Assembly (NCBI GenBank): GCA_963921275.4
Contig: OZ001293.3
Span: forward strand, 4,064,001-4,128,000
Direction of reading: 5' to 3'
DNA from: an uncultured Hormoscilla sp.
GTDB taxonomy: Bacteria; Cyanobacteriota; Cyanobacteriia; Cyanobacteriales; Desertifilaceae
Length of the DNA stretch: 64,000 bases
Part shown: positions 1,629 to 59,973 of the stretch, in pieces
How the letters are laid out: the number at the start of each line of letters is the position of its first letter
Numbering within the stretch: the first letter of the stretch is position 1
Made by a program: the position numbers and the translations under genes
The notes under the pieces: generated by a model
What the model saw: the letters and a program-made list of their open reading frames with translations, nothing else
Told to the model about the DNA's origin: nothing
The model's database searches: none

Positions 1629-2128
1629 GCCGCGTTCCTCATGCTCCTTATATTAAAGAATACATTTTTTCGGTGAAAGTTGTCCTTTCCGCCTTCTACA
1701 GCTAGTCAGTCATATACTCCTCTTGTTTACAATACCTGTGCTGACTGCCTTTTGCTACGGTTTACTGCTTCCCAACATAGAGCATCATTGGGTAGAAGCA
1801 CCTTGTTTTCCCGGGTTGGATCTGAGGGAAATATTTTGAATATTTTGGTAGCCTCTCTGGTCTAATTGCATTTTCTGGCTGAACCGAGATTTTCAATCTT
1901 CTTTTCCCAAGTCTTTTCCCTTCTTGATGTACGTTAACCCATTTTTTTCCTAAATGGGTGCTGATTTTTTAGTTAAGTTATGTTTCTTTTTCCCAAGGAA
2001 GTTTTTTCACTGTCTGTCAGCCTAGCTGCGATCGGCATGCCAACCACCGCCGCCTCCCTATAGGCTGGTTTTACCATAGATTCCCTCCCGATTATTGTCT
2101 GTTCTCTGTTGTCAATTGTCTCTTGTCC

Positions 2129-3933
2129 GTGTGATTCGTTTGGTGGTCCCCCACGGTGGGGGACCACCAGCAGGGTTCCATTAGCCCTGACAACTTATAG
2201 ATGATGTGGGTGCAAGCCCCACCCTCCAGGTGCAGGAGTGACAGCACCTTCCCGGCGGTAGCGATGGCATCAATCCGTAAAGCGGGAAGGAAAGGCGCAC
2301 GGCTGGCGCCGCGCAGCGCGATCTGGCTGGCAGCCTAAAACCGGTCATCGTCAAGCAAGTAGCCATGGTGAACGCAAGTGAAGGCTCACAAGTGTCGTTA
2401 GACATAACCAGTGAAATAAGGCTGATACACTGGCCCCAAAAGGGGAAGGATATAGGTCGCTGGCCAATGGGCAATGGACGCACCGACAACAAACCCGGCA
2501 TAAAGAGTCCACCTAAAGCTACAACCAATCGTCTATAGGAACGAAGTAACCCGGATATGTACTCTCTACCAAGGTCGATAGGTAGAGTAGCCACCAAAGG
2601 CGCAACATCTGCTTCCATCAGGCAGGTCATAACCGCAAACTCCAGAGATTACTAACGAAGTCCTGGTCAGCAAAATGCCTGGCCGTGCGACGGGTAACAC
2701 AGGATAATAAGGGCAAAAACACCGCCAGCGTTGATGGGGTCAAAACTATTAGCCCTAAAGAGCGCCTAGAGATGGTAAAGGAACTGCGGGTGTCTAACAC
2801 CAGCAAGCCAGCCCGAAGAGTATGGATACCGAAGCCTGGGAGGGCCGAAAAACGTCCACTTGGTATACCCGTTATGTACGATAGGGCCCTACAAGGTCTA
2901 GTCAAGCTAGCACTGGAGTCAGAATGGGAAGCCCATTTTGAGGCTAACTCATATGGATTCATGCCAGACAGGGGATGTCACGATACGATCGGAGCAATCT
3001 TTCTCAGCATCAGACAAAAACCCAAATGGGTACTAGATGCTGACATAGCCAAATGCTTTGACAAAATTGACCATCAAGCGCTACTAGCAAAATTAAATAC
3101 CTCACCTACCTTCCGTAGACAGATACGCGCATGGTTGAAAGCCGGTGTGGTAGATGTAGGACAAATACAACAGACACCCGAAGGAACCCCTCAAGGTGGA
3201 GTCATATCGCCCCTGTTGGCAAACGTGGCCCTACATGGAATTGAGGAGGCAGTAATGTCACTGGCAGGAAACAACAGAGACAGAAGGAGAGAACTGACAG
3301 TAGTCAGATACGCCTCCGACCTTGTAGTCCTGCACAAAGACAAAGGAATGATAGAAAAAGCGCAAGAGGTCATCGCGCGATGGCTAAGGGGAATAGGACT
3401 TGAATTAAAAACGGAGAAAACTCAACCCATACACTCCACGAGGACAACCCGGGATTCGATTTCCTGGGATTCAACGTAAGGCAGTATGAGATAGGCAAAT
3501 ATCACTCTGGAAAATATGCAAATGGGAAACTCCTAGGATTCAAAACTCTGATAAAGCCAAGCGAAAAAGCCATAGCAGAACACATGGAAAAGCTAAAAGG
3601 GATAGTGTCCAAACACAAGGCGGCCCCGCAAGCCGCATTAATCAATCACCTTAACCCGGTAATACGGGGATGGGCGAATTACTACCGGACGGTGGTAAGC
3701 AAGGAAACCTTCTCTTATTTAGACCACTACTTGTGGGAACTGCTATGGAAATGGGCCAAACGAAGACATCCCAACAAAACAGGAAAATGGATAGCCAAGA
3801 AATACTGGTCAAAAAATCAGGATGAACAATGGCGATTCCGAAGCAAAGAGGGTGAAAAGGAAAACGTGCTACTAAAACACAGCTCTGTGGAAATAGTCAG
3901 GCACATAAAGGTGAAGGAAACAGTAAGCCCCTA
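2129..3933 (+). mobile_element. Degenerate group II intron remnant (5' RNA domains plus broken RT ORF, 3' end lost)
   Basis: Starts GTGTGATTCGTT (degenerate GTGCG); 2160-2627 homologous to the 5' RNA of the introns at 33676 and 41769; no domain V/VI before the junction at ~3933. Confidence 0.85.
2630..3933 (+). pseudogene. ltrA: Group II intron reverse transcriptase/maturase pseudogene
   Basis: RPLGIP, LDADIAKCFD, GTPQGGVISPLLAN; catalytic YADD changed to YASD; N-terminus deleted, frameshift near 3425, HNH domain missing. Confidence 0.9.
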
Positions 3934-4272
3934 CGCCCTTTGGGTTTGTTCCAGGGATTGCTTGAGCGTGCTCTGACTGAGTAGAGGAAAGATCTGATGA
4001 GTATATCCATGCAGACCAATCCAATGACTCCGCTGATATACCTGTCTAGCAATAGCAGGCGCTTGCTCCACACAGACGCCTAACCAAAAGAAACTGGCCT
4101 GAATGTCGTAGCTTTCTAGCACTTGTAGCAGTTCCGGGGTGTAATGTCGATGGGGACCATCATCAAAAGTTAGGGTGATCGCCGGTGTATTGCTAGGGCC
4201 AGACCAGAGCCACCTGTTAAAGGCTGGCTGAAGAAGACGATACAAAACGGGATATATTGGTTCGATCGGCAT
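3931..4272 (-). pseudogene. Polysaccharide deacetylase (NodB-like), C-terminally truncated
   Basis: LTFDDGP motif and IGLHGYTH metal motif; ORF stops after ~113 aa where it meets the truncated intron. Confidence 0.85.
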
Positions 4273-7922: not shown

Positions 7923-8669
7923 TTAATACTCTCCCATCTCTTTTCCTTCCAAAAATGCTCGTTTGGCGTACTTGCGCATATTCGACTCGGTTATTTTTGC
8001 AAAACAGACCAGTTCGTGGCCTTTGTAATATTCGGGATTGCGTTCTAAAAAATACTTGATATCTGGTTTCTCGCGAAAATTGTCTTTGATTTCAGCCCAT
8101 TGCTCTCGCAAATGTCCTCGGGAAGTGGGGAATTTAACCAGGCCGTTGTTGGGGCTATAATGTTCTCCAAATTTCTCCCCTGCCAGATAATCCATCAAGG
8201 CTTGGTCTTCAGACGGCATAGGATAGCGCCAAGTGGGATAAAATTTTTCTCCAAACACCGGCAAATAGCGATAAGTGCGGTATCCCTTGACAATTAAAAA
8301 CCAATAAAGGGGCACGTCCGGTTTTTGGGCTTTTACTCGACCAGCCAAGCGACACCAGGCCATCGGTAGGGTTTGTTCTCCCCAATAATCATTATGGATA
8401 ATCGTATCTCCAGAAAATAGGGCTCGTCTCGGCTGTCCGTTAAATTCAAATTCCAGAAGAGCCAAGGTAGAAAAGCCTTTCAATCGATGTTGGTCATCCC
8501 ATAATAAAATGACAAAATCTTTGTTTTTTAGGTCGCCAGAAAATATCTCCCAGCTCGTCCCATCGTAATACTGGAAATATAAATAATACATTGAGCGGCT
8601 TATGGGACCTGGTACTACTGGCTCTTTGGGATCTTTTTTTAAAGCAGTTTCAGCGGTTAAGCGACTCAT
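7923..8669 (-). CDS. Hypothetical GNAT-like protein, last gene of the oxidative cluster
   Basis: Intact 248-aa ORF with FSGDTII, YWFLIVKGYRTYRYLP motifs; co-oriented after the GH3 gene; fold call is inference. Confidence 0.65.
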   Translation of the reverse strand: MSRLTAETALKKDPKEPVVPGPISRSMYYLYFQYYDGTSWEIFSGDLKNKDFVILLWDDQHRLKGFSTLALLEFEFNGQPRRALFSGDTIIHNDYWGEQTLPMAWCRLAGRVKAQKPDVPLYWFLIVKGYRTYRYLPVFGEKFYPTWRYPMPSEDQALMDYLAGEKFGEHYSPNNGLVKFPTSRGHLREQWAEIKDNFREKPDIKYFLERNPEYYKGHELVCFAKITESNMRKYAKRAFLEGKEMGEY

Positions 8670-8783
8670 TAGACAACCTCCAAGTAACTGTGGCGTATAA
8701 CTGTTAGATCGCATCCGGATAATCTTAATATGGTAGGTTGGGTTGAGCTAAGCGCGAAACCCAACATGTGCATCTCATTTTTG

Positions 8784-33477: not shown

Positions 33478-33675
33478 AGGGGCGACGGCGGCTTTGCTAG
33501 GGCAGGTTTTTAAGTTGGCAGTCACTCAACCTTGGTTTGGGGCCCAAAATGTGGACGTGACGGCACCGGAATGGTTGCGGGGTGGCTTGCTACTGCCCCT
33601 CGGAAATAATTTTCAACTGTCTTATGTGAGGCTGTTTATAATTGGGCTCACGGTCCTTTGTATTGTCGGCATTTA
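33478..33675 (+). pseudogene. urtB: Internal fragment of urea ABC transporter permease
   Basis: PWFGAQNVDVTAPEWLRGG...RLFIIGLTVLCIVGI resembles cyanobacterial UrtB; fused to Uma2 upstream and cut by the intron downstream. Confidence 0.7.
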
Positions 33676-36073
33676 GTGCGACTCGTTCAGTGTAAACCAC
33701 CGGTGATAACCGAAGGGGGACCACTGGCAAGGCTCCATTAGCCTTGATAACTTTTAGATGATGGTGGTGAAAGCCCACCCCTCCAGGTGCAGGAGTGACA
33801 GCACTTACCCCACGGTAGCGATGGCATCAATCCGTGAAGCGGGTACGAAAGGCGCCCTGGCTGGTAGCCTAAACCGGTCATCGCCGATTTTTCGCGCAGC
33901 GTGCAAGTAGTCACGGTGAGCGAAAGCAAAGATTTACAGTGTCGTTACGACAAACCAGCGTAATAAGGCTAAACACGCTGGCCCAAAAGGGAAAGGATAA
34001 TGGTCATTGGCGGTTCCTTTTCCGACCAATAAGCACCGACAATAAACCCGGCATAAGGAATCCACCTAAAACTACGACCAATCATCTAGAGGAACGAAGT
34101 AAACCAGGTACATACTCTCAACCACCGGTCGATAGGTTGAGCAGCCACCAAAGGCGCAACATCTGCTTACATTCGGCAGGTTATATCTGGGAAAGATTTC
34201 GCGGAGAAGCTAACGCCTTTCTGTAATGGATGGGATATGCTGACGCCCTCACGGTAACGTCAATTGTAAAGTTGTAAGTAGCAATACATACGTCATGAGC
34301 ACGATGTCAAAATCGATGAATGAATGGAAGGATATCCCCTGGCCTCGGCTGGAACGGGTAGTCTTTAAGTTGCAAAAACGAATTTACAGAGCGGCACAAG
34401 AAGGCAATAAGCAAAAAGTTCGCAGGCTCCAAAGGTTACTGGTAAGCTCCCGGGCTGCCAAATGTCTAGCGGTACGACGGGTTACACAAGATAACCAGGG
34501 AAAGAAGACAGCCGGTGTGGATGGTGTGAAATCACTAACCCCAAAGCAACGCCGAGAACTGGTAGGACAGATTGAAATCTCAAACAAGGCTAAGCCTACA
34601 CGTCGTGTATGGATTCCTAAGCCAGGGAGAGAAGAAAAACGTCCTTTAGAAATACCCACGATGCACGACCGCGCGAATCAAGGGCTCCTCAAGATTGCGC
34701 TTGAACCCGAATGGGAAGCATATATGGAGGGGAACTCATACGGATTCAGACCGGGTCGGGGATGCCACGATGCAATTGCGGCAATATTCAGCAGCATTAA
34801 ACAGAAACCCAAATGGGTATTAGATGCAGATATTGCGAAATGTTTCGACAGGATAGACCACAAAGCGCTAGTCGAAAAATTAAATACTACGTCACCAATC
34901 CGTAAACAAGTACGGGCATGGTTAAAAGCCGGGGTGATTGACAAGAAGATATGGCACACAACTGAGGCAGGAACGCCACAAGGGGGTGTCATATCCCCAC
35001 TGCTAGCCAATATAGCCCTACAGGGGTTAGAGGAAGCAGTAATGGAATTAGCAAAGACACAAAGGGAAAAGCAAAAGCTGACGGTAGTCAGATACGCAGA
35101 CGACTTTGTGATCATGCATGAAGACAGGGAGATGATAGACAGAGCGCAAACAGTGGTGGCAGAGTGGCTAAGAAGAATAGGGCTTGAGTTGAAGGCCGAA
35201 AAGACAAAGATAGCCCACAGGCTAAATGGAGAAAACCCGGGATTCGACTTCCTAGGATTCAATATAAGGCAATATAAAGAGGGAAAATACAGAACCGGCA
35301 AATCAACAAACGGAACACCCCTAGGATTCAAAACCCTAATCAAACCCAGTAATAAGTCCATAGGGAAGCATAAAGAACGGTTATCAGAAATGGTAACTAG
35401 CCATATAACAGCACCACAAGCGGCCCTAATAAGCAGGCTAAACCCGATAATAAGGGGATGGTCAAACTACTTTAGGACAGTGGTAAGCAAGGAAATTTAC
35501 AGCGATATGGACAACTACCTATGGAACATCCTATGGCAATGGGCCAAAAGGAGGCACCCTAACAAGTCAAGTAACTGGATAACCTATAAATACTGGTCTG
35601 TAAACCAGGATGCTAAATGGCGATTCCGAAGCAAGACAAAAGAGGGTGATATGAAGATACGTAAACACTCCGAAACTGAGATAATCAGACACGTAAAAGT
35701 GAAAGGGACCGCAAGCCCATACGACGGGAACCTCACATATTGGAGCACAAGATTAGGCAAAAGCCCCGAACTGAGTAAAAGGGTAGCAACGCTACTCAAG
35801 CAGCAAAAGGGAAAATGCCAACAGTGCGGACTAACGTTTATGGATAGTGACAAATGGGAAGTTGACCATATCATGCCCCTTTCACTAGGAGGTAAGGACC
35901 GGTATGACAACCTACAGTTGCTACACAAACACTGCCACGACAAAAAGACTGCCAGCGATGGCAGTAGCCGTACCCATGACAAGGGTGGCGTGACCGAGGA
36001 GCAGGATGAGGCGAAAGTCTCATGTCCGGTTTTGAAGACGAGTCGGTCCGGTGACGGACTGGCTTAGTTTAAT
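33676..36073 (+). mobile_element. Full-length group II intron (2398 bp)
   Basis: 5' GTGCGACTCGTT; domain V GAGCAGGATGAGGCGAAAGTCTCATGTCCGGTTTTG; 3' end ...TTAGTTTAAT. Confidence 0.95.
34295..36067 (+). CDS. ltrA: Group II intron reverse transcriptase/maturase with HNH endonuclease
   Basis: PQGG, YADD, maturase X domain, CQQC...VDH...DNLQLLHKHCH. Confidence 0.96.
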   Translation: MSTMSKSMNEWKDIPWPRLERVVFKLQKRIYRAAQEGNKQKVRRLQRLLVSSRAAKCLAVRRVTQDNQGKKTAGVDGVKSLTPKQRRELVGQIEISNKAKPTRRVWIPKPGREEKRPLEIPTMHDRANQGLLKIALEPEWEAYMEGNSYGFRPGRGCHDAIAAIFSSIKQKPKWVLDADIAKCFDRIDHKALVEKLNTTSPIRKQVRAWLKAGVIDKKIWHTTEAGTPQGGVISPLLANIALQGLEEAVMELAKTQREKQKLTVVRYADDFVIMHEDREMIDRAQTVVAEWLRRIGLELKAEKTKIAHRLNGENPGFDFLGFNIRQYKEGKYRTGKSTNGTPLGFKTLIKPSNKSIGKHKERLSEMVTSHITAPQAALISRLNPIIRGWSNYFRTVVSKEIYSDMDNYLWNILWQWAKRRHPNKSSNWITYKYWSVNQDAKWRFRSKTKEGDMKIRKHSETEIIRHVKVKGTASPYDGNLTYWSTRLGKSPELSKRVATLLKQQKGKCQQCGLTFMDSDKWEVDHIMPLSLGGKDRYDNLQLLHKHCHDKKTASDGSSRTHDKGGVTEEQDEAKVSCPVLKTSRSGDGLA

Positions 36074-36218
36074 TGTCTCTCTAGCCAGGTGCTCAGCTGG
36101 CTGAACCCTTTGTCGTCGTTGTAGAAGTGTTTTGGTGAGAGTTTTGCCGTTCTCAAGCATCAGAGCGACATGAAATGTCTTTTTGCGCTCTGTCGATGCC
36201 TAGAACTGTTTGTGTCAT
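36074..36218 (-). pseudogene. IS110-family recombinase N-terminal fragment
   Basis: Minus strand ATG 36218: MTQTVLGIDRAQK / (frameshift) TFHVALMLENGKTLTKHFYNDDKGFSQLSTWLER; GID start typical of IS110 DEDD domain; cut by the intron. Confidence 0.75.
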
Positions 36219-36275
36219 AGCGCTGTACCTCAATTTTAACTCAATTTTAAGTGGATAGCATACAAATTGTATGCT

Positions 36276-36472
36276 GACTGGTCAATGCAACTAACCGCGG
36301 TTTAGCAGGCTCAACAAAGCGTGGGTGGCCTAAGATACTGGACAGTATCAGGATCAAACCAGTCGTGATTCACCTGCAGGGAGCTAATCTACACAACAGA
36401 CTTAGCCTTAAGGTGTATTAGGGGCACGCCAGCTTCACCTGACCGAAGTAGAGAGAGTGTTTGAGTGCTCTG
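36276..36472 (-). ncRNA. IS110/IS621-type bridge-RNA-like locus
   Basis: Upstream of the IS110 fragment; two stem-enclosed loops (CAGG..AGCT/AGCT..CCTG and GACTGGT/ACCAGTC) carrying CGTGCCCCT...TGTTGTGTAGATT and CCAGTATCT, paralleling the IS621 bridge RNA layout as recalled. Confidence 0.7.
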
Positions 36473-36671
36473 GTCGGGGTCGAGCTGGGAATCACTCCCC
36501 AACCCTCCAAGAGCGGAACCGGGCTTGCGACTTTCACCGCACCCGGCTACTGGGCAGTAGGGCCTTGTCATTGGTAGGATTACTGGGGATTACTCCCGTT
36601 GTCCCTCATCTCATGTAATTTCTCCCCTTTCCTGGTTGGTAAGTGGCGCTGCCGGATAACCTTTAGTATTA

Positions 36672-37683
36672 ACTCAAGTTGCGACCTATAAAAATTGGAT
36701 ACAAAAAGCTATGATAAAGAGAATTATTTTCAACTCTAATCCCTTAGATGTAACAGCATGAATTGACTTGGGAAACAAATTTGTGATTCGACTAAAACAG
36801 GTTTCAACTTGTTTTCTTGTTACTTTTTGTATATATTCAAAACAAGAATATTCTTTTTTTTTTGAGTTCTTTTTTCGCAAAGGTTTTAACATTATACTTG
36901 ACGACTCTTTTAGTAAATCCTCTAATTGATAATCATTATAAGCTTTATCTCCATAAACTATTGAATTTGATGGTAAGTCAAAGCCAAAAGATTGCAAAAC
37001 TTTAAAATCATTATAACTACCAGGATCTAGATAAAATTCTATTGGCTTTCCATTTTTGTTTACCAACATATGAACTCTTAATCCATAAAAATAACGTTTT
37101 TTACTGGCAATATACCCTCGATATTCTTCCTTGTTATAAATTTGGCATCTATCAATCCTAATATTATCACATACTGGCACCGGGAAACTATCAAGAATAT
37201 ATTCTTGACCCGGATTGAGATATTTAAATGTTTGAGCTATAACTTGGAAGAAAAACATCCAAATTGGTTCGTCAATATTGTGTAATCGACGATTGAACCT
37301 ACTTTTACTTAACAGATTTTTTATATACTTGTGTTGGACCATAAATTGACAAGAGCGATCGTGGTGTCCTCCGAAAAAATATGCAGCAACTAATCCGACT
37401 GTCATCACTTCGGCATTGTTCATTTTTACTTGTGGATCTTCTTTTATATTTAACGCTTTTAGTAGCTCGTCACAAAGAACAAAAATTGTTGTAATCATAT
37501 CTTCCATCATCTACATCCCCCAGCAATTAACTATTATTTTAGTACATTATAACCTATAAACAGCCAACCCGCCGTCTAGCACAAAAAAAATATAATTTTG
37601 TATCAAAAGCTACGAAATATCCCAAATATCTGTAAAGTCTAAGTGGGTAATTCATATTTTTTTTAATAGGTCGCAACTTAGGT
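36672..37683 (-). mobile_element. IS982-family insertion sequence, copy A (1012 bp)
   Basis: TIR AC(TC/CT)AAGTTGCGACCTAT; TSD TATTA. Confidence 0.93.
36686..37510 (-). CDS. IS982 family transposase (DDE intact)
   Basis: ILDSFP, FYGLRVH, GDKAY, RKQVETCFS. Confidence 0.93.
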   Translation of the reverse strand: MMEDMITTIFVLCDELLKALNIKEDPQVKMNNAEVMTVGLVAAYFFGGHHDRSCQFMVQHKYIKNLLSKSRFNRRLHNIDEPIWMFFFQVIAQTFKYLNPGQEYILDSFPVPVCDNIRIDRCQIYNKEEYRGYIASKKRYFYGLRVHMLVNKNGKPIEFYLDPGSYNDFKVLQSFGFDLPSNSIVYGDKAYNDYQLEDLLKESSSIMLKPLRKKNSKKKEYSCFEYIQKVTRKQVETCFSRITNLFPKSIHAVTSKGLELKIILFIIAFCIQFL

Positions 37684-37946
37684 TATTACCAATTTATCTG
37701 AGTCCGTTTCACCAGTTATCCCACCTTCGCATGCTAGGTATTGGGGCGTATTAGGGTTACTTTAGCCCGAGATTTCCTACTGTCACCGACCCCTGTTTGC
37801 TTATCCCAGGCATTAATTAGGGCTTTTGCTTCTTGGGCCATCCCTCCCACCGTAGCTTGCGCTTCACATCTGACTGGTCTCGGTAGACAGCACACGATGG
37901 GTTACTTCGTTCCCTAGTATCATTTCACGATGCTTTTAGGTTCCTA

Positions 37947-40077: not shown

Positions 40078-40721
40078 TGTTTGGCCTCCGTAAACTGGTT
40101 ATTTTGTATCCCCGGCGACGGTTTTAGTAAATTATATACAGGACTGAGGCAAATTGTCAAACCGAGTCCTAGATTTAGCTTCTGGTGGGCGGTACTGAGT
40201 TATGATATCATCAGGGAGCGCGATCGTTTGCTTTGAGAACGGCGATCCATGGCCTCCCATCCGCCGGTGCGATCGCCGGACATGAGAATCGTTGGAGAGA
40301 TTTGGAATTGTCAAATTGAGGACATTCCCACGAAGCTCAATTAATGGTAAAACCATCTTCACTGATGCAGGGCATCTGCGATGACAATTGTAGACTATAA
40401 TTGATAGATAAGATGGACTATTCCCAAATTCGCGCCGAAGCAGAAAGACTGCTGGAGATACTTTATGTAACACCGTTTGAAGACTGCTGCCCCTTGACCA
40501 AACAATTTTCCCATCTGATGGTTAGACCGGGTTTGTATGCTATCCGTCATCGGGTTGATGGTATATTAACTCAAGTTGCTACCTATAAAAATTGCGACCT
40601 CCCAGACAGCCATTTTGGTAAATTTATTCGCCAAAATGCCGTTTTGGGGTAAATCACAAGGTAATTTTGGCTGATTTTGGCTGATTTTGGCGCTTTGCAA
40701 GGAGTTGAGGTTCTATAGGTA

Positions 40722-41733
40722 ACCTAAGTTGCGACCTATTAAAAAAAATATGAATTACCCACTTAGACTTTACAGATATTTGGGATATTTCGTAGCTTTT
40801 GATACAAAATTATATTTTTTTTGTGCTAGACGGCGGGTTGGCTGTTTATAGGTTATAATGTACTAAAATAATAGTTAATTGCTGGGGGATGTAGATGATG
40901 GAAGATATGATTACAACAATTTTTGTTCTTTGTGACGAGCTACTAAAAGCGTTAAATATAAAAGAAGATCCACAAGTAAAAATGAACAATGCCGAAGTGA
41001 TGACAGTCGGATTAGTTGCTGCATATTTTTTCGGAGGACACCACGATCGCTCTTGTCAATTTATGGTCCAACACAAGTATATAAAAAATCTGTTAAGTAA
41101 AAGTAGGTTCAATCGTCGATTACACAATATTGAGGAACCAATTTGGATGTTTTTCTTCCAAGTTATAGCTCAAACATTTAAAGAGCTCAATCCGGGTCAA
41201 GAATATATTCTTGATAGTTTCCCGGTGCCAGTATGTGATAATATTAGGATTGATAGATGCCAAATTTATAACAAGAAAGAATATCGAGGGTATATTGCCA
41301 GTAAAAAACGTTATTTTTATGGATTAAGAGTTCATATGTTGGTAAACAAAAATGGAAAGCCAATAGAATTTTATCTAGATACTGGTAGTTATAATGATGT
41401 TAAAGTTTTGCAATCTTTTGGCTTTGACTTACCATCAAATTCAATAGTTTATGGAAATAAAGCTTATAATGATTATCAATTAGAGGATTTACTAAAAGAG
41501 TCGTCAAGTATAATGTTAAAACTTTTGCGAAAAAAGAACTCAAAAAGAAAAGAATATTCTTGCTTTGAATATATACAAAAAGTAACAATAAAACAAGTTA
41601 AAACCTGTTTTAGTCGAATCACCAATTTGTTTCCCAAGTCAATTCATGCTGTTACATCTAAGGGATTAGAGTTGAAAATAATTCTCTTTATCATAGCTTT
41701 TTGTATCCAATTTTTATAGGTCGCAACTTGAGT
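40722..41733 (+). mobile_element. IS982-family insertion sequence, copy B (1012 bp)
   Basis: Inverted near-copy of 36672-37683; TSD TAGGTA (40716-40721, 41734-41739). Confidence 0.93.
40895..41719 (+). CDS. IS982 family transposase, probably inactive
   Basis: GDKAY changed to GNKAY and RKQVET to IKQVKT relative to copy A. Confidence 0.88.
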   Translation: MMEDMITTIFVLCDELLKALNIKEDPQVKMNNAEVMTVGLVAAYFFGGHHDRSCQFMVQHKYIKNLLSKSRFNRRLHNIEEPIWMFFFQVIAQTFKELNPGQEYILDSFPVPVCDNIRIDRCQIYNKKEYRGYIASKKRYFYGLRVHMLVNKNGKPIEFYLDTGSYNDVKVLQSFGFDLPSNSIVYGNKAYNDYQLEDLLKESSSIMLKLLRKKNSKRKEYSCFEYIQKVTIKQVKTCFSRITNLFPKSIHAVTSKGLELKIILFIIAFCIQFL

Positions 41734-41768
41734 TAGGTAGCAACTTAGGTTATATTATATATTGGTAA

Positions 41769-42535
41769 GTGCGATTCGTTTAGCATAAACCGCCAGTGAT
41801 AACTGGTGGGGGACCGCTAGCAGGGTTTCATTAGCCCTAACAACTTACAGATGATGGTGGTGAAAGCCCACCCCTCCAGGTGCAGGAGTGAAAGCATATT
41901 CCTTACAGTAGCGATGGCATCAATCTGTAAAGCAGGAATAAAAGGCGCACTGGCCGGTAGCCTAAACCGGTCAACGTCAAGCAAGTAGCCATGATGAGCA
42001 TAAAGCAAAGATTTGCAGCGTCGTAAATATGAACCAGTGTAATAAGGCTGAGACACTGGCCCAAAAGGGAAAGGATAATGGTCGTTGGCAGGTTTATCTC
42101 TGACCAACAAGCACTGACAATAAACCCGGCGTATGGAATCCATCTAAAGCTACAACCAATCATCTGTAGGAACGAAGTAACCCGGTTACGCACTCTCTAT
42201 CACCGGTCGATAGGTAGAGTAGTCACCAAAGACGTAACATCTGCTCTCATTAGGCAGGTCGTAGCCGGAAAAGGATTGAGTGGAGAAGCAAACGCCTATT
42301 TGTAATGAGTAGGATACGCTGACGCTCTCACGGTAATGTCAAAGGTAAAGTTGCAAGTAACAGTACAAACGTTATGAACAAGGTTTCAAAACCGATGTAT
42401 GAATGGAAGACCATCCCCTGGCGAAAGTTAGAACGGAGGGTTTTCAAGCTGCAAAAGCGAATTTACAGAGCGGCACAACGTGGCAATACACTGCCACGAC
42501 GTAAAGACTGCTAACGATGGTAGTTGCCGTACCTA
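41769..42535 (+). mobile_element. Group II intron with internally deleted ORF, 3' end cut off
   Basis: GTGCGATTCGTT start; ORF from 42374 MNKVSKPMYEWKTIPW...RAAQRGN jumps directly to the HNH-tail-like HCHDVKTANDGSCRT. Confidence 0.88.
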
Positions 42536-44933
42536 ATTAAACTAAGCCAGTCCGTCACCGGACCGACTCGTCTTCAAAACCGGACATGAGACTTTCGCCT
42601 CATCCTGCTCCTCGGTCACGCCACCCTTGTCATGGGTACGGCTACTGCCATCGCTGGCAGTCTTTTTGTCGTGGCAGTGTTTGTGTAGCAACTGTAGGTT
42701 GTCATACCGGTCCTTACCTCCTAGTGAAAGGGGCATGATATGGTCAACTTCCCATTTGTCACTATCCATAAACGTTAGTCCGCACTGTTGGCATTTTCCC
42801 TTTTGCTGCTTGAGTAGCGTTGCTACCCTTTTACTCAGTTCGGGGCTTTTGCCTAATCTTGTGCTCCAATATGTGAGGTTCCCGTCGTATGGGCTTGCGG
42901 TCCCTTTCACTTTTACGTGTCTGATTATCTCAGTTTCGGAGTGTTTACGTATCTTCATATCACCCTCTTTTGTCTTGCTTCGGAATCGCCATTTAGCATC
43001 CTGGTTTACAGACCAGTATTTATAGGTTATCCAGTTACTTGACTTGTTAGGGTGCCTCCTTTTGGCCCATTGCCATAGGATGTTCCATAGGTAGTTGTCC
43101 ATATCGCTGTAAATTTCCTTGCTTACCACTGTCCTAAAGTAGTTTGACCATCCCCTTATTATCGGGTTTAGCCTGCTTATTAGGGCCGCTTGTGGTGCTG
43201 TTATATGGCTAGTTACCATTTCTGATAACCGTTCTTTATGCTTCCCTATGGACTTATTACTGGGTTTGATTAGGGTTTTGAATCCTAGGGGTGTTCCGTT
43301 TGTTGATTTGCCGGTTCTGTATTTTCCCTCTTTATATTGCCTTATATTGAATCCTAGGAAGTCGAATCCCGGGTTTTCTCCATTTAGCCTGTGGGCTATC
43401 TTTGTCTTTTCGGCCTTCAACTCAAGCCCTATTCTTCTTAGCCACTCTGCCACCACTGTTTGCGCTCTGTCTATCATCTCCCTGTCTTCATGCATGATCA
43501 CAAAGTCGTCTGCGTATCTGACTACCGTCAGCTTTTGCTTTTCCCTTTGTGTCTTTGCTAATTCCATTACTGCTTCCTCTAACCCCTGTAGGGCTATATT
43601 GGCTAGCAGTGGGGATATGACACCCCCTTGTGGCGTTCCTGCCTCAGTTGTGTGCCATATCTTCTTGTCAATCACCCCGGCTTTTAACCATGCCCGTACT
43701 TGTTTACGGATTGGTGACGTAGTATTTAATTTTTCGACTAGCGCTTTGTGGTCTATCCTGTCGAAACATTTCGCAATATCTGCATCTAATACCCATTTGG
43801 GTTTCTGTTTAATGCTGCTGAATATTGCCGCAATTGCATCGTGGCATCCCCGACCCGGTCTGAATCCGTATGAGTTCCCCTCCATATATGCTTCCCATTC
43901 GGGTTCAAGCGCAATCTTGAGGAGCCCTTGATTCGCGCGGTCGTGCATCGTGGGTATTTCTAAAGGACGTTTTTCTTCTCTCCCTGGCTTAGGAATCCAT
44001 ACACGACGTGTAGGCTTAGCCTTGTTTGAGATTTCAATCTGTCCTACCAGTTCTCGGCGTTGCTTTGGGGTTAGTGATTTCACACCATCCACACCGGCTG
44101 TCTTCTTTCCCTGGTTATCTTGTGTAACCCGTCGTACCGCTAGACATTTGGCAGCCCGGGAGCTTACCAGTAACCTTTGGAGCCTGCGAACTTTTTGCTT
44201 ATTGCCTTCTTGTGCCGCTCTGTAAATTCGTTTTTGCAACTTAAAGACTACCCGTTCCAGCCGAGGCCAGGGGATATCCTTCCATTCATTCATCGATTTT
44301 GACATCGTGCTCATGACGTATGTATTGCTACTTACAACTTTACAATTGACGTTACCGTGAGGGCGTCAGCATATCCCATCCATTACAGAAAGGCGTTAGC
44401 TTCTCCGCGAAATCTTTCCCAGATATAACCTGCCGAATGTAAGCAGATGTTGCGCCTTTGGTGGCTGCTCAACCTATCGACCGGTGGTTGAGAGTATGTA
44501 CCTGGTTTACTTCGTTCCTCTAGATGATTGGTCGTAGTTTTAGGTGGATTCCTTATGCCGGGTTTATTGTCGGTGCTTATTGGTCGGAAAAGGAACCGCC
44601 AATGACCATTATCCTTTCCCTTTTGGGCCAGCGTGTTTAGCCTTATTACGCTGGTTTGTCGTAACGACACTGTAAATCTTTGCTTTCGCTCACCGTGACT
44701 ACTTGCACGCTGCGCGAAAAATCGGCGATGACCGGTTTAGGCTACCAGCCAGGGCGCCTTTCGTACCCGCTTCACGGATTGATGCCATCGCTACCGTGGG
44801 GTAAGTGCTGTCACTCCTGCACCTGGAGGGGTGGGCTTTCACCACCATCATCTAAAAGTTATCAAGGCTAATGGAGCCTTGCCAGTGGTCCCCCTTCGGT
44901 TATCACCGGTGGTTTACACTGAACGAGTCGCAC
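42536..44933 (-). mobile_element. Full-length group II intron (2398 bp), inverted copy of 33676-36073
   Basis: Same termini, same length and identical ORF translation. Confidence 0.95.
42542..44314 (-). CDS. ltrA: Group II intron reverse transcriptase/maturase with HNH endonuclease
   Basis: 590 aa identical to 34295-36067. Confidence 0.96.
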   Translation of the reverse strand: MSTMSKSMNEWKDIPWPRLERVVFKLQKRIYRAAQEGNKQKVRRLQRLLVSSRAAKCLAVRRVTQDNQGKKTAGVDGVKSLTPKQRRELVGQIEISNKAKPTRRVWIPKPGREEKRPLEIPTMHDRANQGLLKIALEPEWEAYMEGNSYGFRPGRGCHDAIAAIFSSIKQKPKWVLDADIAKCFDRIDHKALVEKLNTTSPIRKQVRAWLKAGVIDKKIWHTTEAGTPQGGVISPLLANIALQGLEEAVMELAKTQREKQKLTVVRYADDFVIMHEDREMIDRAQTVVAEWLRRIGLELKAEKTKIAHRLNGENPGFDFLGFNIRQYKEGKYRTGKSTNGTPLGFKTLIKPSNKSIGKHKERLSEMVTSHITAPQAALISRLNPIIRGWSNYFRTVVSKEIYSDMDNYLWNILWQWAKRRHPNKSSNWITYKYWSVNQDAKWRFRSKTKEGDMKIRKHSETEIIRHVKVKGTASPYDGNLTYWSTRLGKSPELSKRVATLLKQQKGKCQQCGLTFMDSDKWEVDHIMPLSLGGKDRYDNLQLLHKHCHDKKTASDGSSRTHDKGGVTEEQDEAKVSCPVLKTSRSGDGLA

Positions 44934-45752
44934 TGAACTAACGGACATAACAACTCAATCAATTTTCACGAGTGGAGAATCTTCTTGCCACTATCAAGTC
45001 CAAGCAACAAGGGCGTCATAGTGCAACATAAAAAAATCAGGCAGGACCCTTTGTTTTAGCAACTAATCAACTTGATAAATTAGCGCTAAATTCAGAAAAA
45101 ATGCTCCACATATATAAAACCGAGCAGCAGGAAGTGAAGCGTTGTTTTAAGTTTGTTAAAGACCCAATGTTTTTTGCGGATAGTGTATTTATTAAATCTC
45201 CAAAATGAATTGAAGTTTTAGGTTTAATTATGGCTCGATCTTTGTTAGTGTATAAAGTAGTAGAGCGACAGATAAGGCAAACACTTAAAGGAACAGGTTC
45301 AGGAGTAAAAAATCAGTTAGGTCCGCTGACGGATAGACCGACCCTACCTTGGATATTTCAATGTTTTCAGTCAATCCATATCTATATATCAGGCGGTAAC
45401 AAACAGATTTCAAATATTAATGAGGAGCGTTTGCACTTTCTGAAATTCTTCCCCCAGCATGGAGCGCGGTACTATTTACTGGCGTAAAATTCAAGAGGGT
45501 AAATTATGTAAAAACACACATTCAATAATGAGTATAACTTAGAGATATTTCACCTCTGAGTAGCTTGATATTGAGCAATAATAGAAAAATTTTAGTAATT
45601 TTATGTCAAGTAAGTTGTTGTTGTTGGTTGGTATAATTTTTTGGGTATTTTAAGGGACGCTGCATTGGATATTTGCCTATATTTGTGATATTGTAAGAGT
45701 TAAAAAGACCGATGTTTTATTTATGTAGTACACTTGTCGTGCGTAATGTAGG
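44934..45752 (+). mobile_element. IS1634-family transposase 3' remnant and right end
   Basis: FVLATNQLD, FKFVKDPMFFADSVFIKSP, LLVY..ERQIR, TDRPTL.WIFQCFQSIH with stops; end-like GTGCGTAATGTAGG at 45739-45752. Confidence 0.8.
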
Positions 45753-51922: not shown

Positions 51923-54900
51923 ATGGCTTTCTCTGCAATTATTCGCGAAATCGGACGCTCTCAGTTGACGAAGGAACTGCTCAGAAAACTGGAACGGTCC
52001 GGGTGCCTGACTCTCCAGGGTATCCCCCGCTTCTCTAAAGGATTGGTGGCTTCCGCTTTGGCTCAGGCCCAGAAACGCCCTCTGTTCGTAGTTACTGCTA
52101 CTACCGAAGAAGCCAGTCGCTGGGTTACTCAACTGGAGGCGATGGCTTGGCAGACATGGCATTTTTATCCTACTTCGGAAGCTTCTCCCTATGAACCTTT
52201 TGACCCTGAGTCGGAAATGACTTGGGGTCAAATACAGGTCTTGGCTGATTTGGTCGCTAAATCGACTGCCCGGGAATATAATATAGCGATCGTCGCTACC
52301 GAGCGATCGCTCCAACCCCATCTTCCCCCACCTGATGCCCTTAAACCTTACTTTATTCCCCTACAACAGGGGATGTCTTTTGAGCAACAGACCCTCGATC
52401 ATCAACTCACTCAACTGGGTTACGATCGCGTACCCCTGGTGGAAACAGAAGGACAATGGAGTCGCCGAGGTGATATTGTTGATATCTTCCCCGTCGCTTC
52501 GGAATTGCCCGTGCGCTTGGAATGGTTTGGAGATGAACTCGAACAACTGCGGGAGTTTGACCCCAGCACTCAGCGATCGCTCGATTTTTCGCGCAGCGAT
52601 TTTTTGCGCAGCGATTTTTCGCGCAGCGATTTTTCGCGCAGCGATTTTTCGCGCAGCGATTTTTCGCGCAGCGATCACATTAACCAGCTAATCCTCACAC
52701 CCACGGATTTTGCTCCCATTATCAAGGCCCATCTCCAACAGGATGTAGAAGAATCAGAAGAGATCCGACGCTTTCTGGGACTAACTTTTCCCCAACCAGC
52801 TTCTTTACTCGACTACTTGCCCGATCGGACTTTAATTGCTATTGACGAACCCATCCAATCTGCTGCCCATAGCAATAGCTGGTTGGCCCAGGCAGAAGAA
52901 CAATGGTCCCTGGTGAATCGGGAAATATCCTTGCCGAAAATTCATCGTAATTTTGCGGAATCATTGGCAGCAGCAGTCCCATTCAAGCAATTACATTTAT
53001 CAGAACTGGGAACGGAAACCCTCCCGACTGAAGATACTATTAATCTGGCGACCCGCCCCGTGCCAGTTTTGCCCCATCAATTTGCTAAACTGGCCCAAAC
53101 TATTAGAGAACAAGTAGTTAAGCGCTTTTCTACTTTTGTCATCTCCGCCCAACCTTCCCGTTCCGTTGCCCTCTTGCAAGAACATGATTGTCCTGCCCAT
53201 TTCGTCCCTAACCCCCGGGACTATCCTGCCATCGATAAACTGCTATCAACGCATACCCCCATTGCCCTGAAATATTCAGGCGGGGCAGAACTGGAAGGAT
53301 TCCTTCTCCCCACCCTCCCCATGCTAGTGGTGACCGATCGGGAGTTCTACGGTCAGCATTCCCTAGCAACCCCTACCTACGTGCGCAAACGCCGTCGCGC
53401 TGCTTCCAAACAGGTGGACCCCAACAAGCTGCAACCGGGAGATTATGTCGTTCACCGCCATCATGGCATCGGCAAATTTATCAAGCTAGAAAACCTGACG
53501 ATTAATAATGAAACCCGCGAGTATCTGGCGATCGAATATGCCGATGGTTTGCTGCGGGTGGCAGCCGACCAGTTGGGGACTTTGTCCCGGTTTAGAACTG
53601 CTGCTGGCCAGAAACCCCAATTGCATAAGTTAACTGGCAAAACCTGGGAGAAGACTAAGAATAAAGTTTGGAAAAATGTCAAGAAACTGGCAGTTGACTT
53701 GATCGGACTTTACGCCCAGCGATCGCAGCAAACGGGATTTGCCTATCCCGAAGATTCTCCCTGGCAAAAGGAATTAGAAGAATCTTTTCCCTATCAACCC
53801 ACCCCCGACCAGTTGAAGGCCACTCAAGATGTCAAACGGGATCTGGAGTCTCCACGACCGATGGACAGATTGGTTTGCGGTGATGTGGGTTTCGGGAAAA
53901 CGGAAGTGGCCATTAGATGCATCTTCAAAGCCGTTACCGCCGGCAAGCAGGTGGCTTTACTTGCCCCGACCACTATCCTCACTCAACAACATTATCATAC
54001 CCTGAAAGAACGCTTTGCTCCCTACCCCATTCATGTGGGTTTACTCAACCGCTTCCGCACCCCTGAGGAACGCCGGGAAATCCAAAAGCGACTGGCTACG
54101 GGGGAATTAGATGTGGTGGTGGGCACTCAAGCAATTCTCAGTAAGGATGTGAAATTCCGGGATTTAGGCTTGTTGGTAGTTGATGAAGAACAGCGTTTTG
54201 GTGTTAATCATAAGGAAAAGATTAAAGCCATGAAAACTCAGGTGGATGTCCTGACTCTCTCCGCCACCCCTATTCCTCGTACTCTTTATATGTCCCTGTC
54301 TGGCGTCCGGGAAATGAGTCTGATTACTATTCCTCCCCCCGGGCGCCGGTCGATTAAAACTCATCTTTTACCCTATGATAAAGATGCCGTCAAAACTGCT
54401 ATTCGTCAAGAGTTGGATCGCGGCGGTCAAGTTTTTTATGTCGTCCCCCGCATCGAGGGCATTGAAGAAATTAGCAGTAAACTCCGGGAGATGATTCCTG
54501 GGGCCCGAATGGCGATCGCCCACGGGCAAATGCCGGACAATGAGTTAGAAACTATCATGCTGAGATTCAGCAGCGGCGAAGCAGATATCATGGTCTGCAC
54601 TACCATTATCGAATCTGGCTTAGATATCCCCAGGGTGAACACGATCTTGATTGAAGATGCCCAACTATTCGGCCTTGCTCAACTCTACCAATTGCGGGGA
54701 CGTGTGGGACGGGCTGGCATTCAAGCTCATGCTTGGCTATTTTACCCCTATGAGAAACTATCAGATGTGGCCCGCAAGCGCTTACGGGCGATTCAGGAAT
54801 TTACTCAACTGGGTTCCGGTTATCAGTTAGCAATTCGGGATATGGAAATTCGCGGCGTTGGCAATCTCTTGGGCGTCGAACAGTCCGGACAGATGGACGC

Positions 54901-55426
54901 CATCGGCTTTGATTTATATATGGAAATGCTGCAAGAGGCCATCCGCGAAATTCAAGGACAAAAAATTACTCAAGTTGATGATACTCAAATTGATCTCAGT
55001 CTCACGGCCTTTATCCCTGCTAATTATATCCCCGATCTGGAACAGAAAATGAGTGCTTATCGCGCTGTGGCCTCTGCCAGTTCCCGCACTGAGTTGACCC
55101 AAATTGCCGCTGGTTGGAGCGATCGCTACGGTACCATTCCCGCCCCGGCCCAGCAACTATTGCGGGTGATGACAGTCAAGCAGGTGGCTAAATCCCTCGG
55201 TTTCTCTCGCATTAAACCCGAGGGAAAACAGCATGTCGCTATGGAAACGCCCATGGAGGAACCGGCCTGGAATTTACTTAAAGAAAAGCTGCCAACACAT
55301 TTGCGATCGCGCTTTGTCTACAGCAAGAGTAAAGTCACCGTTCGCGGTTTAGCTGTTCTCCCTGCTGACAAGCAACTGGAAAACCTGATTGACTGGTTGG
55401 GTAAGATGCAAGGGGCTTTGCCTTGA
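51923..55426 (+). CDS. mfd: Transcription-repair coupling factor Mfd
   Basis: [70 protein letters not shown]. Confidence 0.97.
52582..52676 (+). repeat. 15-bp in-frame tandem repeat x6 (CGATTTTTCGCGCAG) inside mfd
   Basis: Encodes (DFSRS)x6 with one DFLRS variant, directly after a HIP1 site. Confidence 0.95.
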
Positions 55427-55943
55427 CAATTAGTGAATATTGACATCTTGCTAGGCCGGGTACGTTTCCAGGCGGGAACATTGCGGGAACATTTCCCGAA
55501 CCCTAAAGGGCCCGGCTACACGAACAAAGCCCGCCTGCGCGGGCTAAATTACAAAAGTGAGATGCGCCCAGGAACTCGGCTTTATGATGCAAGGGGCTTT
55601 GCCTTGACAATTAGTGAATATTGACATCTTGCTAGGCCGGGTACGTTTCCAGGCGGGAACATTGCGGGAACATTTCCCGAACCCTAAAGGGCCCGGCTAC
55701 ACGAACAAAGCCCGCCTGCGCGGGCTAAATTACAAAAGTGAGATGCGCCCAGGAACTCGGCTTTATGATGCAAGGGGCTTTGCCTTGACAATTAGTGAAT
55801 ATTGACATCTTGCTAGGCCGGGTACGTTTCCAGGCGGGAACATTGCGGGAACATTTCCCGAACCCTAAAGGGCCCGGCTACACGAACAAAGCCCGCCTGC
55901 GCGGGCTAAATTACAAAAGTGAGATGCGCCCAGGAACTCGGCT
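55405..55943. repeat. 181-bp tandem repeat x3 including the last mfd codons
   Basis: Units begin at 55405, 55586 and 55767 (GATGCAAGGGGCTTTGCCTTGA...). Confidence 0.95.
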
Positions 55944-56614
55944 TATGTCGATTAAAACAGACTAATGACATAATGCCGTGCCTCCGTTAAGAGTTTCCCA
56001 CTAATACAACTACTTTTGACCACACCCCCTGGAAACCGACATCTCTTCTGGGCAATCCTGTGAATTGAGGTAAATTTTATAGAAGTAAATACTTGTAAAT
56101 TTCTGGTAATATCGTGAACCAACCACGCTGCCAGTACATAACCGATGTGGGCGATTGCCAGGGCGATCGAGAAGCTAACAGCATTCCAGCACGATGTCCA
56201 GCATAGTCCAATGACGTATAAGTCTTTATTTTTATACCATAGCTGAGACCTGAATGCAAGCATCTCTTAGGTAAATTTTGCCAAAATCCGCTGCTAAAAA
56301 GCCCTAAAATCCAGATATAGCAATATTTTTACCAATATTTACCAACCTGGCACTTAAGCATTCGGTGAGGCCACTGGTCAGTGACCGGTGACCAGTGGTC
56401 AGACGCACGTCGCTGGTAAGTTATGGGAGCAAACCTGCACTAGAACATGGCTTGCACTGGCGATCGCACCTTTGGGCCAGGGGCCGATCGCGCAGCTATG
56501 TACCGGCGTCTGGCTGTGCTTATCTTGGAACAAGACCTGTCGCGACTATCTTGGTGTTGCGGACAACTATTGTGATATGATTGTCCGAAGAGCATACCAG
56601 GAGTAATAGCCAAG

Positions 56615-57376: not shown

Positions 57377-57889
57377 AATGCGATCCATTTCGGTATTGCT
57401 GCGGAGAACTCTGCCATTTATTCTGGGGTGAAATCACTATAATGAGTAATTGAACTGATCGTGTCCGAGAGCACCACCCTATCACACTTTGTGCGATAGG
57501 GTGGTGTCTCTGGACACGATCCCAAGGTCCCGGGTAGACTGGGTACAACAGGATGAGCTCGGGGCCAGATCTGACTATTGTCATCTGTGACAACTGGCGT
57601 AGCACTTGCGTAACTACTCGAGCGATCGTACTAAATACCGTCGCGCCAGTGTAACGACAATATGATTACATAGCGTAGGCATATTGGAATGCCCACCAGA
57701 TCAGGAAGGCGATGCCTCCCAATACTAGGATAGCAGAGATGGCGACTGCTTTCGGGCTATCAGCGCCCTTGAACTTCATGATGCCACGGTTTAAGTCTGA
57801 CATTTTGTTCTCCTCTGTGCGAAAATACAATTGCGATTACATCTGGGGCTGTTATTGCCATATTATTTATAGCTTAGGTGAGCTTGAAT

Positions 57890-58931: not shown

Positions 58932-59503
58932 AAACCAAGGACAAACCTGTTGGGTTTCTGGACGAAACCCAACGCAAGCGCTCTTACTACAAACCAAGGA
59001 CAAACCTGTTGGGTTTCTGGACGAAACCCAACGCAAGCGCTCTTACTACAAACCAAAGACAAACCTGTTGGGTTTCTGGACGAAACCCAATGCAAGCGCT
59101 AAAGCGCTTACTACAAACCAAGGACAAACCTGTTGGGTTTCTGGACGAAACCCAACGCAAGCGCTCTTACTACAAACCAAGGACAAACCTGTTGGGTTTC
59201 TGGACGAAACCTAACGCAAGCGCTAAAGCGCTTACTACAAACCAAGGACAAACCTGTTGGGTTTCTGGACGAAACCCAATGCAAGCGCTAAAGCGCTTAC
59301 TGCAAACCAAGGACAAACCTGTTGAGTTTCTGGACGAAACCCAACGCAAGGGCTAAAGCGCTTACTACAAACCAAGGACAAATATGTTGGGTTTCTGGAC
59401 GAAACCCAACGCAAGGGCTAAAGCGCTTACTACAAACCAAGGACAAACCTGTTGAGTTTCTGGACGAAACCCAACGCAAGGGCTAAAGCGCTTACTACAA
59501 ACC
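58932..59503. repeat. Tandem array of nine 59/65-bp hairpin units
   Basis: Units start 58932, 58991, 59050, 59115, 59174, 59239, 59304, 59369, 59434; each has GTTGGGTTTC-TGGAC-GAAACCCAAC or a near-identical variant. Confidence 0.95.
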
Positions 59504-59628
59504 TATGGAATATGAAGAATCTGCGAGTTTTACTAATCGGCGGTTATGCAGCAATGCTGGCGTATTGCACCCATCTATTATCTCAAAATTTGACTGGCAA
59601 TTCCCAGGTGGCTAAAGCAGAAGCGACT

Positions 59629-59722
59629 CCAGTCATGATTCGGTTCAGGGAGCTAATCTACACAACAGACTTGTCAAAGTGTGTTTGAGTCCTCTTCCAC
59701 CAGACTAATCCTAGCATACAAG
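59629..59722 (-). mobile_element. Orphan IS110 left-end remnant
   Basis: Minus strand CT-TGTATGCTAGG... then GAG.ACTCAAACAC and AAGTCTGTTGTGTAGATTAGCTCCCTG shared with 36359-36470. Confidence 0.75.
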
Positions 59723-59973
59723 GGGCACGGCAGAGCGTAGATTATCGGTGATGATGTAAAAGGTAACAGCTGCCGTGTCCCGGGGCGATCGCAAATGTGA
59801 TTTCGGGACAGGGCATCATTATCGGCTATGATGAGGAAGGAGACAAACAGGCTGCTTTGTGCCCCGGCGCAAGGCGATAGCCAATAGGTGGTCGCAGCAG
59901 GCAGATGAGAGATTGAGGTGCAAGATGAGAGGAAAGGAGACAGGAGGTGATGTATAATGCCAGGAAGTGAAGT

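Follow-up and report, generated by a model that had tools for sequence, protein, structure and literature searches.

What occupies positions 59629-59722, upstream of bioB in this Hormoscilla contig, and is the point at which it meets the adjoining DNA a site that a bridge-RNA guide would have specified? The first-pass annotation had described this segment as a second IS110 left end, lying in a REP-like palindrome exactly where a guide carried by another copy in the window (the whole stretch of DNA analysed, 64,000 nt) would have directed it. The window has a clear cyanobacterial signature: the HIP1 octamer (GCGATCGC), a marker of cyanobacteria, occurs 42 times, against 0.78 expected. Our analysis leads us to conclude, with a probability of about 0.9, that the segment is the stump of a dead, IS621-like element of the IS110 family, inserted at a guide-specified hairpin foot upstream of bioB.

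The stump itself (59629-59720, minus strand) is a 92-nt remnant of the left end (LE) of such an element. It reads CT-TGTATGCTAGG on the minus strand from 59722 (hyphens separate the core from its neighbours), giving a CT-TGTAT start, as had been noted from the letters alone; Escherichia coli IS621 starts likewise. Two of its features are required for what follows, L001 being a related copy from outside the window that is described below:

59721-59722, minus strand: CT core dinucleotide (AG on the plus strand), at the left junction of the stump
59658-59662, minus strand: retained right target guide (RTG) position, TGTAG, within an invariant block; complementary to CTACA and homologous to L001 LE nt 104 and to GTAG at nt 91 of IS621

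A 26-nt block, AGGGAGCTAATCTACACAACAGACTT, is present exactly twice in the window (36378-36403 and 59647-59672), where none was expected and any match was found in 0 of 100 shuffles, and the stump and the first copy (hereafter copy 1) align as collinear homologues, confirming that the two loci have blocks in common. The stump corresponds to nt 1 to about 134 of the L001 LE (89.1% over 55 nt and 93.6% over 47 nt), minus an internal deletion of 45 columns with its junction near 59673-59678, and the homology stops after GACTGG at 59629. In the alignment, the 45-column segment, which is present in both copy 1 and L001, holds the left target guide (LTG), so the stump has indeed lost its own left guide, as previously proposed, together with the inner hairpin of the target-binding loop. 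Only the 5' terminus of the LE and the 3' half of the first loop are retained; the guide segment, donor loop, transposase and right end are all missing and, with the last three of these gone, the stump can neither move nor guide. A search with an LE profile (nhmmer) matched 59720-59626 with E=6.5e-19, a value obtained with a profile alignment that itself includes both window copies. A frame opened by the ATG at 59512 reads into the stump, with its stop codon at 59686-59688, and gave no Pfam family in a Pfam search. Nine nucleotides ahead of this ATG ends a tandem array (58932-59503) of at least nine units of 59 or 65 nt, each with a hairpin (GTTGGGTTTC...GAAACCCAAC).

Copy 1 is a 398-nt minus-strand piece set between the 3' ends of two convergent group II introns, and it can be divided as follows:

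36220-36472, minus strand: LE (bridge-RNA region) of copy 1, without its first ~25 nt; 78.7% over 305 nt to L001
36420-36428, minus strand: LTG of copy 1, CGUGCCCCU, on the 5' side of the first internal loop
36389-36393, minus strand: RTG position of copy 1, UGUAG, at the homologous position in the LE alignment
36333-36341, minus strand: left donor guide (LDG) position of copy 1, CCAGUAUCU; its L001 counterpart, ACAGUAUCU, equals the right end of L001 plus core
36075-36219, minus strand: start of the IS110 transposase, about the first 48 codons, with two frameshifts; ends at 36074/36075, where group II intron A truncates it with its 3' end

The LDG of copy 1 is given as CCAGTATCT, and its right donor guide (RDG) has diverged. 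A palindrome about 40 nt upstream of the copy-1 ATG, AGCATACAA-T-TTGTATGCT, was considered as a donor guide and rejected, because the arms of the corresponding L001 hairpin differ, with a compensatory change, and the donor guides lie elsewhere. Searches of the 64-kb window for further pieces of the transposase or LE (L001 as query in blastn and tblastn, the transposases of IS621 and Leptolyngbya in tblastn, and nhmmer) returned none, and no right end of the element family was found in the window. A search of the window, allowing up to three mismatches, for the 26 nt absent from the start of the copy-1 LE matched only the stump, and copy 1 (LE plus transposase start) had no match among PLSDB plasmids with blastn in distant mode.

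The intron surroundings of copy 1 are complex. Intron A (33672-36074, plus strand) encodes a 590-aa RT-maturase-HNH protein. On the other side, at about 36473, a fragment of a second, different group II intron (36473-36669, minus strand; Rfam domains D5/D6 at 36551-36473, 41.9 bits) meets the LE with its 3' end, and this fragment is interrupted upstream by a DDE insertion sequence (36670-37685). Intron A has a 100% identical inverted twin at 42535-44937 (minus strand), each of 2403 nt and 6.5 kb apart, so that the intervening segment could readily be inverted; the twins have in common the 4 nt (TTTA) before GTGCG and about 7 nt (TTTAATT) past the intron end. A degenerate copy of intron A, 79-87% identical and without an ORF, occupies 41768-42533 (plus strand) and adjoins the twin at 42534/42535 in the opposite orientation, pointing to nested or rearranged introns. 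The DDE insertion sequence is likewise present as two inverted, 99% identical copies of 1016 nt (DDE_Tnp_1, 274-aa ORF; 36670-37685, minus strand, and 40720-41735, plus strand), and a solitary 31-nt copy of one of its termini lies at 40564-40594.

A scan of genome contigs with an exact 22-mer from the shared LE block identified a single locus, L001, in a MAG of Hormoscilla sp. GM7CHS1pb. L001 has a complete LE of 266 nt (3617-3352, minus strand) containing both the terminal block of the stump and the guide segment of copy 1, followed by a broken transposase gene (3351 to about 1991, minus strand) and a 16-nt non-coding right end. The transposase matched PF02371 (Transposase_20; E=2.6e-10) and gave three collinear matches to NF033542, "IS110 family RNA-guided transposase" (profile positions 21-66, 212-260 and 291-343), each under the whole-protein cut-off, the gene being fragmented; its match to PF01548 (E=0.017) was also under the cut-off. 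It is collinear with residues 13-317 of the 326 residues of the IS621 transposase, with 40.9% identity over 171 aa. A tblastn search against plasmids yielded 18 records, all below 60% identity, the closest transposases being those of Leptolyngbya boryana and Kovacikia minuta (53% and 45% over 105 aa), followed by E. coli IS621 (40.5%). The joining of this LE to a broken IS110 transposase and its alignment with the E. coli IS621 LE bear out the assignment of the repeat to IS110. All three copies of the Hormoscilla type, the stump included, are decayed.

The flanks of L001 reconstruct the target CGTGCCC-CT-ACAT, which contains CGTGCCCCTAC, the word that had been predicted for the empty site, and CT is present at both junctions. 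The loci occupied by the stump (upstream of bioB) and by L001 (downstream of RNase P RNA) are unrelated, and their flanks are alike only over the 12 nt next to the element. The RNase P RNA gene (3794-4161, minus strand, 245 bits) lies about 170 nt upstream of the L001 insertion on the same strand, and a T8 run follows the reconstructed target; the insertion may therefore lie in a region resembling a terminator. The L001 transposase pseudogene (1988-3351, minus strand) is full of small palindromic inserts, with ...GATCGCGCAGCGTGGCGC... present twice, and contains long GTCGTGTCCGAGAGCACCC-type hairpins resembling the palindrome at 57457-57521 in the window.

The boundary of the element can be placed by comparison. 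L001, IS621 and the Leptolyngbya and Kovacikia elements all start with CT-TGT and end with ACAGTAT-CT, and the LE homology with IS621 begins exactly at CT-TGTAT. The 7 nt ahead of the left CT differ from one element to the next (ATCGGGT in IS621, CTCACGG in Leptolyngbya, TAAGCCC in Kovacikia and CGTGCCC in the Hormoscilla type), and the boundary is therefore set at the core, with CGTGCCC read as flanking target DNA rather than as part of the element. This alignment supports an element end at CT-TGTAT, such that GCCGTGCCC would fall outside the element.

In the published analysis of natural elements, the bridge RNA carries a nine-base LTG and a four-base RTG, with guides including the CT core, and a donor loop built alike; the LTG, 9 nt with its CT core, base-pairs to the target's bottom strand, and the IS621 loop encodes ATCGGGCCTAC (Durrant et al. 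2024; PMC11208160). As it pairs with the bottom strand, the LTG is identical to the top-strand left target. In the Hormoscilla family, the first internal loop carries the LTG 5'-CGUGCCCCU-3' and the RTG 5'-(G)UGUAG-3', corresponding to the target CGTGCCCCTACA, and the second carries donor guides for the element's own ends (ACAGTAT-CT-TGTAT). Guide matches were scored by a junction-anchored script for L001, IS621 (L002) and Leptolyngbya (L003), and read by eye for one of six Kovacikia copies (L004):

L001 (Hormoscilla), target guides: LTG CGTGCCCCT at nt 69, 9/9; RTG TGTAG at nt 104 against the right flank CTACA (5 nt)
L001 (Hormoscilla), donor guides: LDG ACAGTATCT at nt 155, 9/9 to right end plus core; RDG ACAAG at nt 195, complementary to CTTGT
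L002 (IS621): LTG ATCGGGCCT at LE nt 64, 8/9 to the flank of this plasmid copy; RTG GTAG at nt 91; LDG ACAGTATC at nt 137
L003 (Leptolyngbya): LTG 8/9; RTG 7 nt; LDG 8/9
L004 (Kovacikia): LTG TATGCCCCT against TAAGCCCCT, 8/9; RTG TGTAG against CTACA (5 nt); LDG ACAGTATC

For IS621, the combination of ATCGGGCCT and GTAG equals the published specificity.

The predicted fold is consistent with this layout. RNAalifold, applied to four LEs (IS621, Leptolyngbya, L001 and copy 1), returned two stem-loops with internal loops and compensatory changes in 12 of 28 pairs; as read from the alignment and fold, the helix beside the first loop is GCAU/AUGC in IS621, AGCU/AGCU in the Hormoscilla type and AUCU/AGAU in Leptolyngbya. 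Part of the RTG block is also paired in this fold, making the limits of the loop provisional. Single-sequence LE folds were no better than shuffles (z=-1.32 and z=-0.49), and no bridge-RNA family was matched in Rfam, either in the window at the gathering threshold or in L001 at E≤1. The Rfam matches obtained in the window and L001 were to group II intron D5/D6, RNase P, a cobalamin riboswitch and CRISPR-DR28, the last being an artefact: three 99-100% identical 181-nt tandem units (55402-55944), directly after an mfd-like gene, each trip this model at 36.6 bits (cut-off 35), and identical units without spacers suggest a spurious CRISPR assignment. A 15-nt tandem repeat, CGATTTTTCGCGCAG, with about eight copies at 52567-52686 inside the 1167-aa Mfd/TRCF frame, yields a pentapeptide-repeat Pfam match at residues 221-251 of that frame.

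At the stump, the left target flank CGTGCCC (59723-59729, minus strand) plus the core gives CGTGCCCCT, identical at all nine positions to the LTG of both copy 1 and L001, and the reported identity between 59721-59729 and 36420-36428 thus holds in full. The word AGGGGCACG is found at these two places and at 8308-8316, three occurrences versus 0.27 expected, and at least three were obtained in 0 of 100 shuffles. The third CGTGCCCCT 9-mer (8306-8316, minus strand), inside a 263-aa minus-strand reading frame listed at 7923-8714, continues with CTTTAT, not CTACA; it is the left half of the predicted target only, and is unoccupied. When anchored at the junction, the 9-mer of copy 1 was reproduced in 164 of 200,000 LE shuffles (about 8 in 10,000), and the corresponding frequencies for the left target and left donor of L001 were 103 and 184 of 200,000. 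Unanchored matches of at least 9 nt to a 33-nt flank on either strand were much commoner (606 of 20,000 shuffles), so the evidence lies in the anchoring at the junction, the strand and the position in the loop. This reading of the guides follows the published geometry of IS621 and is supported by the sequence comparison, with the guide taken from copy 1 (23 kb away) and L001, and with the comparison in the window covering the target's left half. Upstream of bioB, the empty site is predicted to read ...CTGCCGTGCCCCTAC... on the minus strand at 59721/59722.

The flank was also said to be one arm of a palindrome, and this proved correct. Two units can be recognised:

59723-59781, no strand assigned: imperfect palindrome (unit 1), with arms at 59723-59733 and 59770-59781 and a 36-nt loop
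59795-59872, no strand assigned: diverged, uninterrupted tandem copy (unit 2) of a ~66-70-nt unit, with an equivalent arm, CCTGTCCCGA, and no guide match

The arm GGGGCACGGCAG (59722-59733) has its inverted partner at 59770-59781, with one mismatch. In the orientation of the element, the order is GGGACACGGCAG, the 36-nt loop, CTGCCGTGCCC and then directly the CT core, placing the insertion at the 3' foot of the unit-1 hairpin, between the tandem array and bioB. The DNA fold of unit 1 has an energy of -9.31 kcal/mol (z=-1.98; 6 of 200 shuffles as good), and that of unit 2 was not significant relative to shuffles. No copies of the hairpin repeat beyond the two adjacent units were found in the 64-kb window, in which GGGGCACGGCAG with up to two mismatches occurs six times (4.46 expected; no enrichment) and CGTGCCCCTAC with up to two mismatches 13 times (12.07 expected), with no exact occurrence. 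The description "REP-like" is therefore only partly sustained: the structure is a short intergenic imperfect palindrome, but its hairpin is modest, it comprises only two adjacent units and it is not enriched in the window. As for the other elements, a strong hairpin (-21.4 kcal/mol, z=-5.36, equalled by 0 of 200 shuffles) has the Kovacikia copy at its 3' foot, an arrangement also known for IS621 in REP elements, the left flank of the Leptolyngbya copy has no hairpin (z=+0.65), and the hairpin in the left flank of L001 is no better than shuffles.

By analogy with IS621, the insertion would have proceeded through a recombinase and bridge RNA, the guides pairing with both strands of target and donor: the LTG would base-pair to the bottom strand at CGTGCCC-CT and the RTG to the top strand at CT-ACA, and strand exchange at the CT core would place the element at CGTGCCC-CT-AC. 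The small hairpin repeat ahead of bioB would have received, at its 3' foot, an ancestor with the CGUGCCCCU guide, and later deletions would have left the 92-nt stump, devoid of LTG, donor loop, transposase and right end. The interpretation as guided insertion draws support from the IS110 identity of the element, the junction-anchored guide matches and the published geometry. The resulting dead stump has no evident effect on bioB.

Other accounts of the locus must be weighed against this one. The element could have its real terminus in the TGCCGTGCCCCT stretch, which would then not be target DNA; the matching internal sequence would be a donor guide or terminal repeat. The stump and L001 do have these 12 nt in common outside the proposed end, three more than the 9-nt guide would explain, and the internal sequence matches the stretch at 12 of 13 positions in the window and 11 of 13 in L001. 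However, the homology of the IS621, Leptolyngbya and Kovacikia elements starts at CT-TGT, with a different heptamer before it in each; the donor guides are already accounted for, as ACAGUAUCU equals the L001 right end plus core at 9/9 and ACAAG complements CTTGT; and the flank has its pairing partner 36 nt beyond it, in DNA that belongs to no element. We consider such a terminus highly improbable. An unrelated event, either a rearrangement or a deletion, may alternatively have brought the LE stump and a few flanking bases to their place upstream of bioB. Its inner edge at 59629 is a non-homologous break and the DNA around it has undergone much rearrangement, containing IS copies, nested introns and tandem arrays, but the 12-nt flank runs unbroken into the hairpin, with the second arm and the tandem sister unit further out, which favours a left junction still set in the original target and makes this transfer very unlikely.

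It could also be supposed that both loci contain a repeat unrelated to IS110 and that the identity of the 9-mers is a coincidence, an outcome that the earlier annotation had itself named as contrary to its reading. The transposase remnant in the window gives no domain match, a 41-aa piece of the copy-1 transposase start having none in Pfam, and tblastn of the window with the IS621 and Leptolyngbya transposases returned nothing at E≤1. This supposition is nevertheless contradicted by L001, which ties the LE to a full-length, albeit broken, IS110 transposase, by the alignment of the LE with IS621, and by the low chance frequency of the anchored 9-mer given above; we find it scarcely credible. 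Insertion of an IS621-like element at a site specified by its guide thus remains the preferred explanation.

The Hormoscilla-type element resembles E. coli IS621 in many respects. In both, the LE begins with CT-TGTAT and the right end finishes with ACAGTAT-CT, the guides follow the same order (LTG, RTG, LDG and RDG at nt 64, 91, 137 and 176 in IS621, and 69, 104, 155 and 195 in L001), the LTG has 9 nt including the core, and the right half of the target is CTAC(A). Both occupy the 3' foot of a repeat of the hairpin type; for IS621, the REP queries given in the literature end in ...ATCAGGCCTACG (PMC11208160). The transposases of L001 and IS621 are about 41% identical. The two differ in target word (CGTGCCCCTAC versus ATCGGGCCTAC/ATCAGGCCTAC for IS621), LE length (266 nt in L001 versus 191 nt), length of the non-coding right end (16 nt versus ~105 nt) and the last base of the LDG (U in the Hormoscilla type, A in IS621); unlike E. 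coli IS621, the Hormoscilla type has a cyanobacterial host and its copies are decayed. The closest intact transposases found are those of the plasmid elements of Leptolyngbya boryana (AP018204.1, CDS annotated as "pilin gene inverting protein") and Kovacikia minuta (NZ_CP083583.1). These elements have the same CT-TGT start, ACAGTAT-CT end and guide layout as the Hormoscilla type, but different LTGs (TTCACGGCT and TATGCCCCT, respectively) and intact transposase frames, whereas those of the Hormoscilla type are broken. ISPpu9 and ISPpu10 of Pseudomonas putida, likened here by their description alone, are also IS110-family elements, inserting in REP or conserved intergenic repeats (PMC12288879; 10.64898/2026.03.19.712850). 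Bridge RNAs have been predicted in 85.7% of IS110 elements, and REP targeting has already been published (PMC11208160). Judged by titles and the first part of abstracts, none of the papers retrieved on IS110, bridge RNA and cyanobacteria was on this subject, and a search on Hormoscilla gave nothing relevant.

The element belongs to the IS110 group, is IS621-like and has a new target word and a cyanobacterial host; the mechanism itself had already been described in 2024. From decayed cyanobacterial copies it is possible to read the rules of the IS621 bridge RNA (a left guide of 9 nt, a CT core, a short right guide and donor guides), and these rules correctly predict the flank of an independent insertion. 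Their use here lies in the annotation of stumps and the listing of natural guide-target pairs, with no new mechanism. More tentatively, lineage-specific hairpin repeats might be the equivalents of REPs in filamentous cyanobacteria, serving as landing pads for IS621-like elements, with the 5' part of the LTG tracking the hairpin arm of the host (CGTGCCC in the Hormoscilla type, TAAGCCC in Kovacikia) while no change is seen between E. coli and cyanobacteria in the CT-ACA right half or the donor ends; we regard this as possible, although doubtful. If it were true, decayed stumps could be used to date and map families of hairpin repeats in symbiont genomes.
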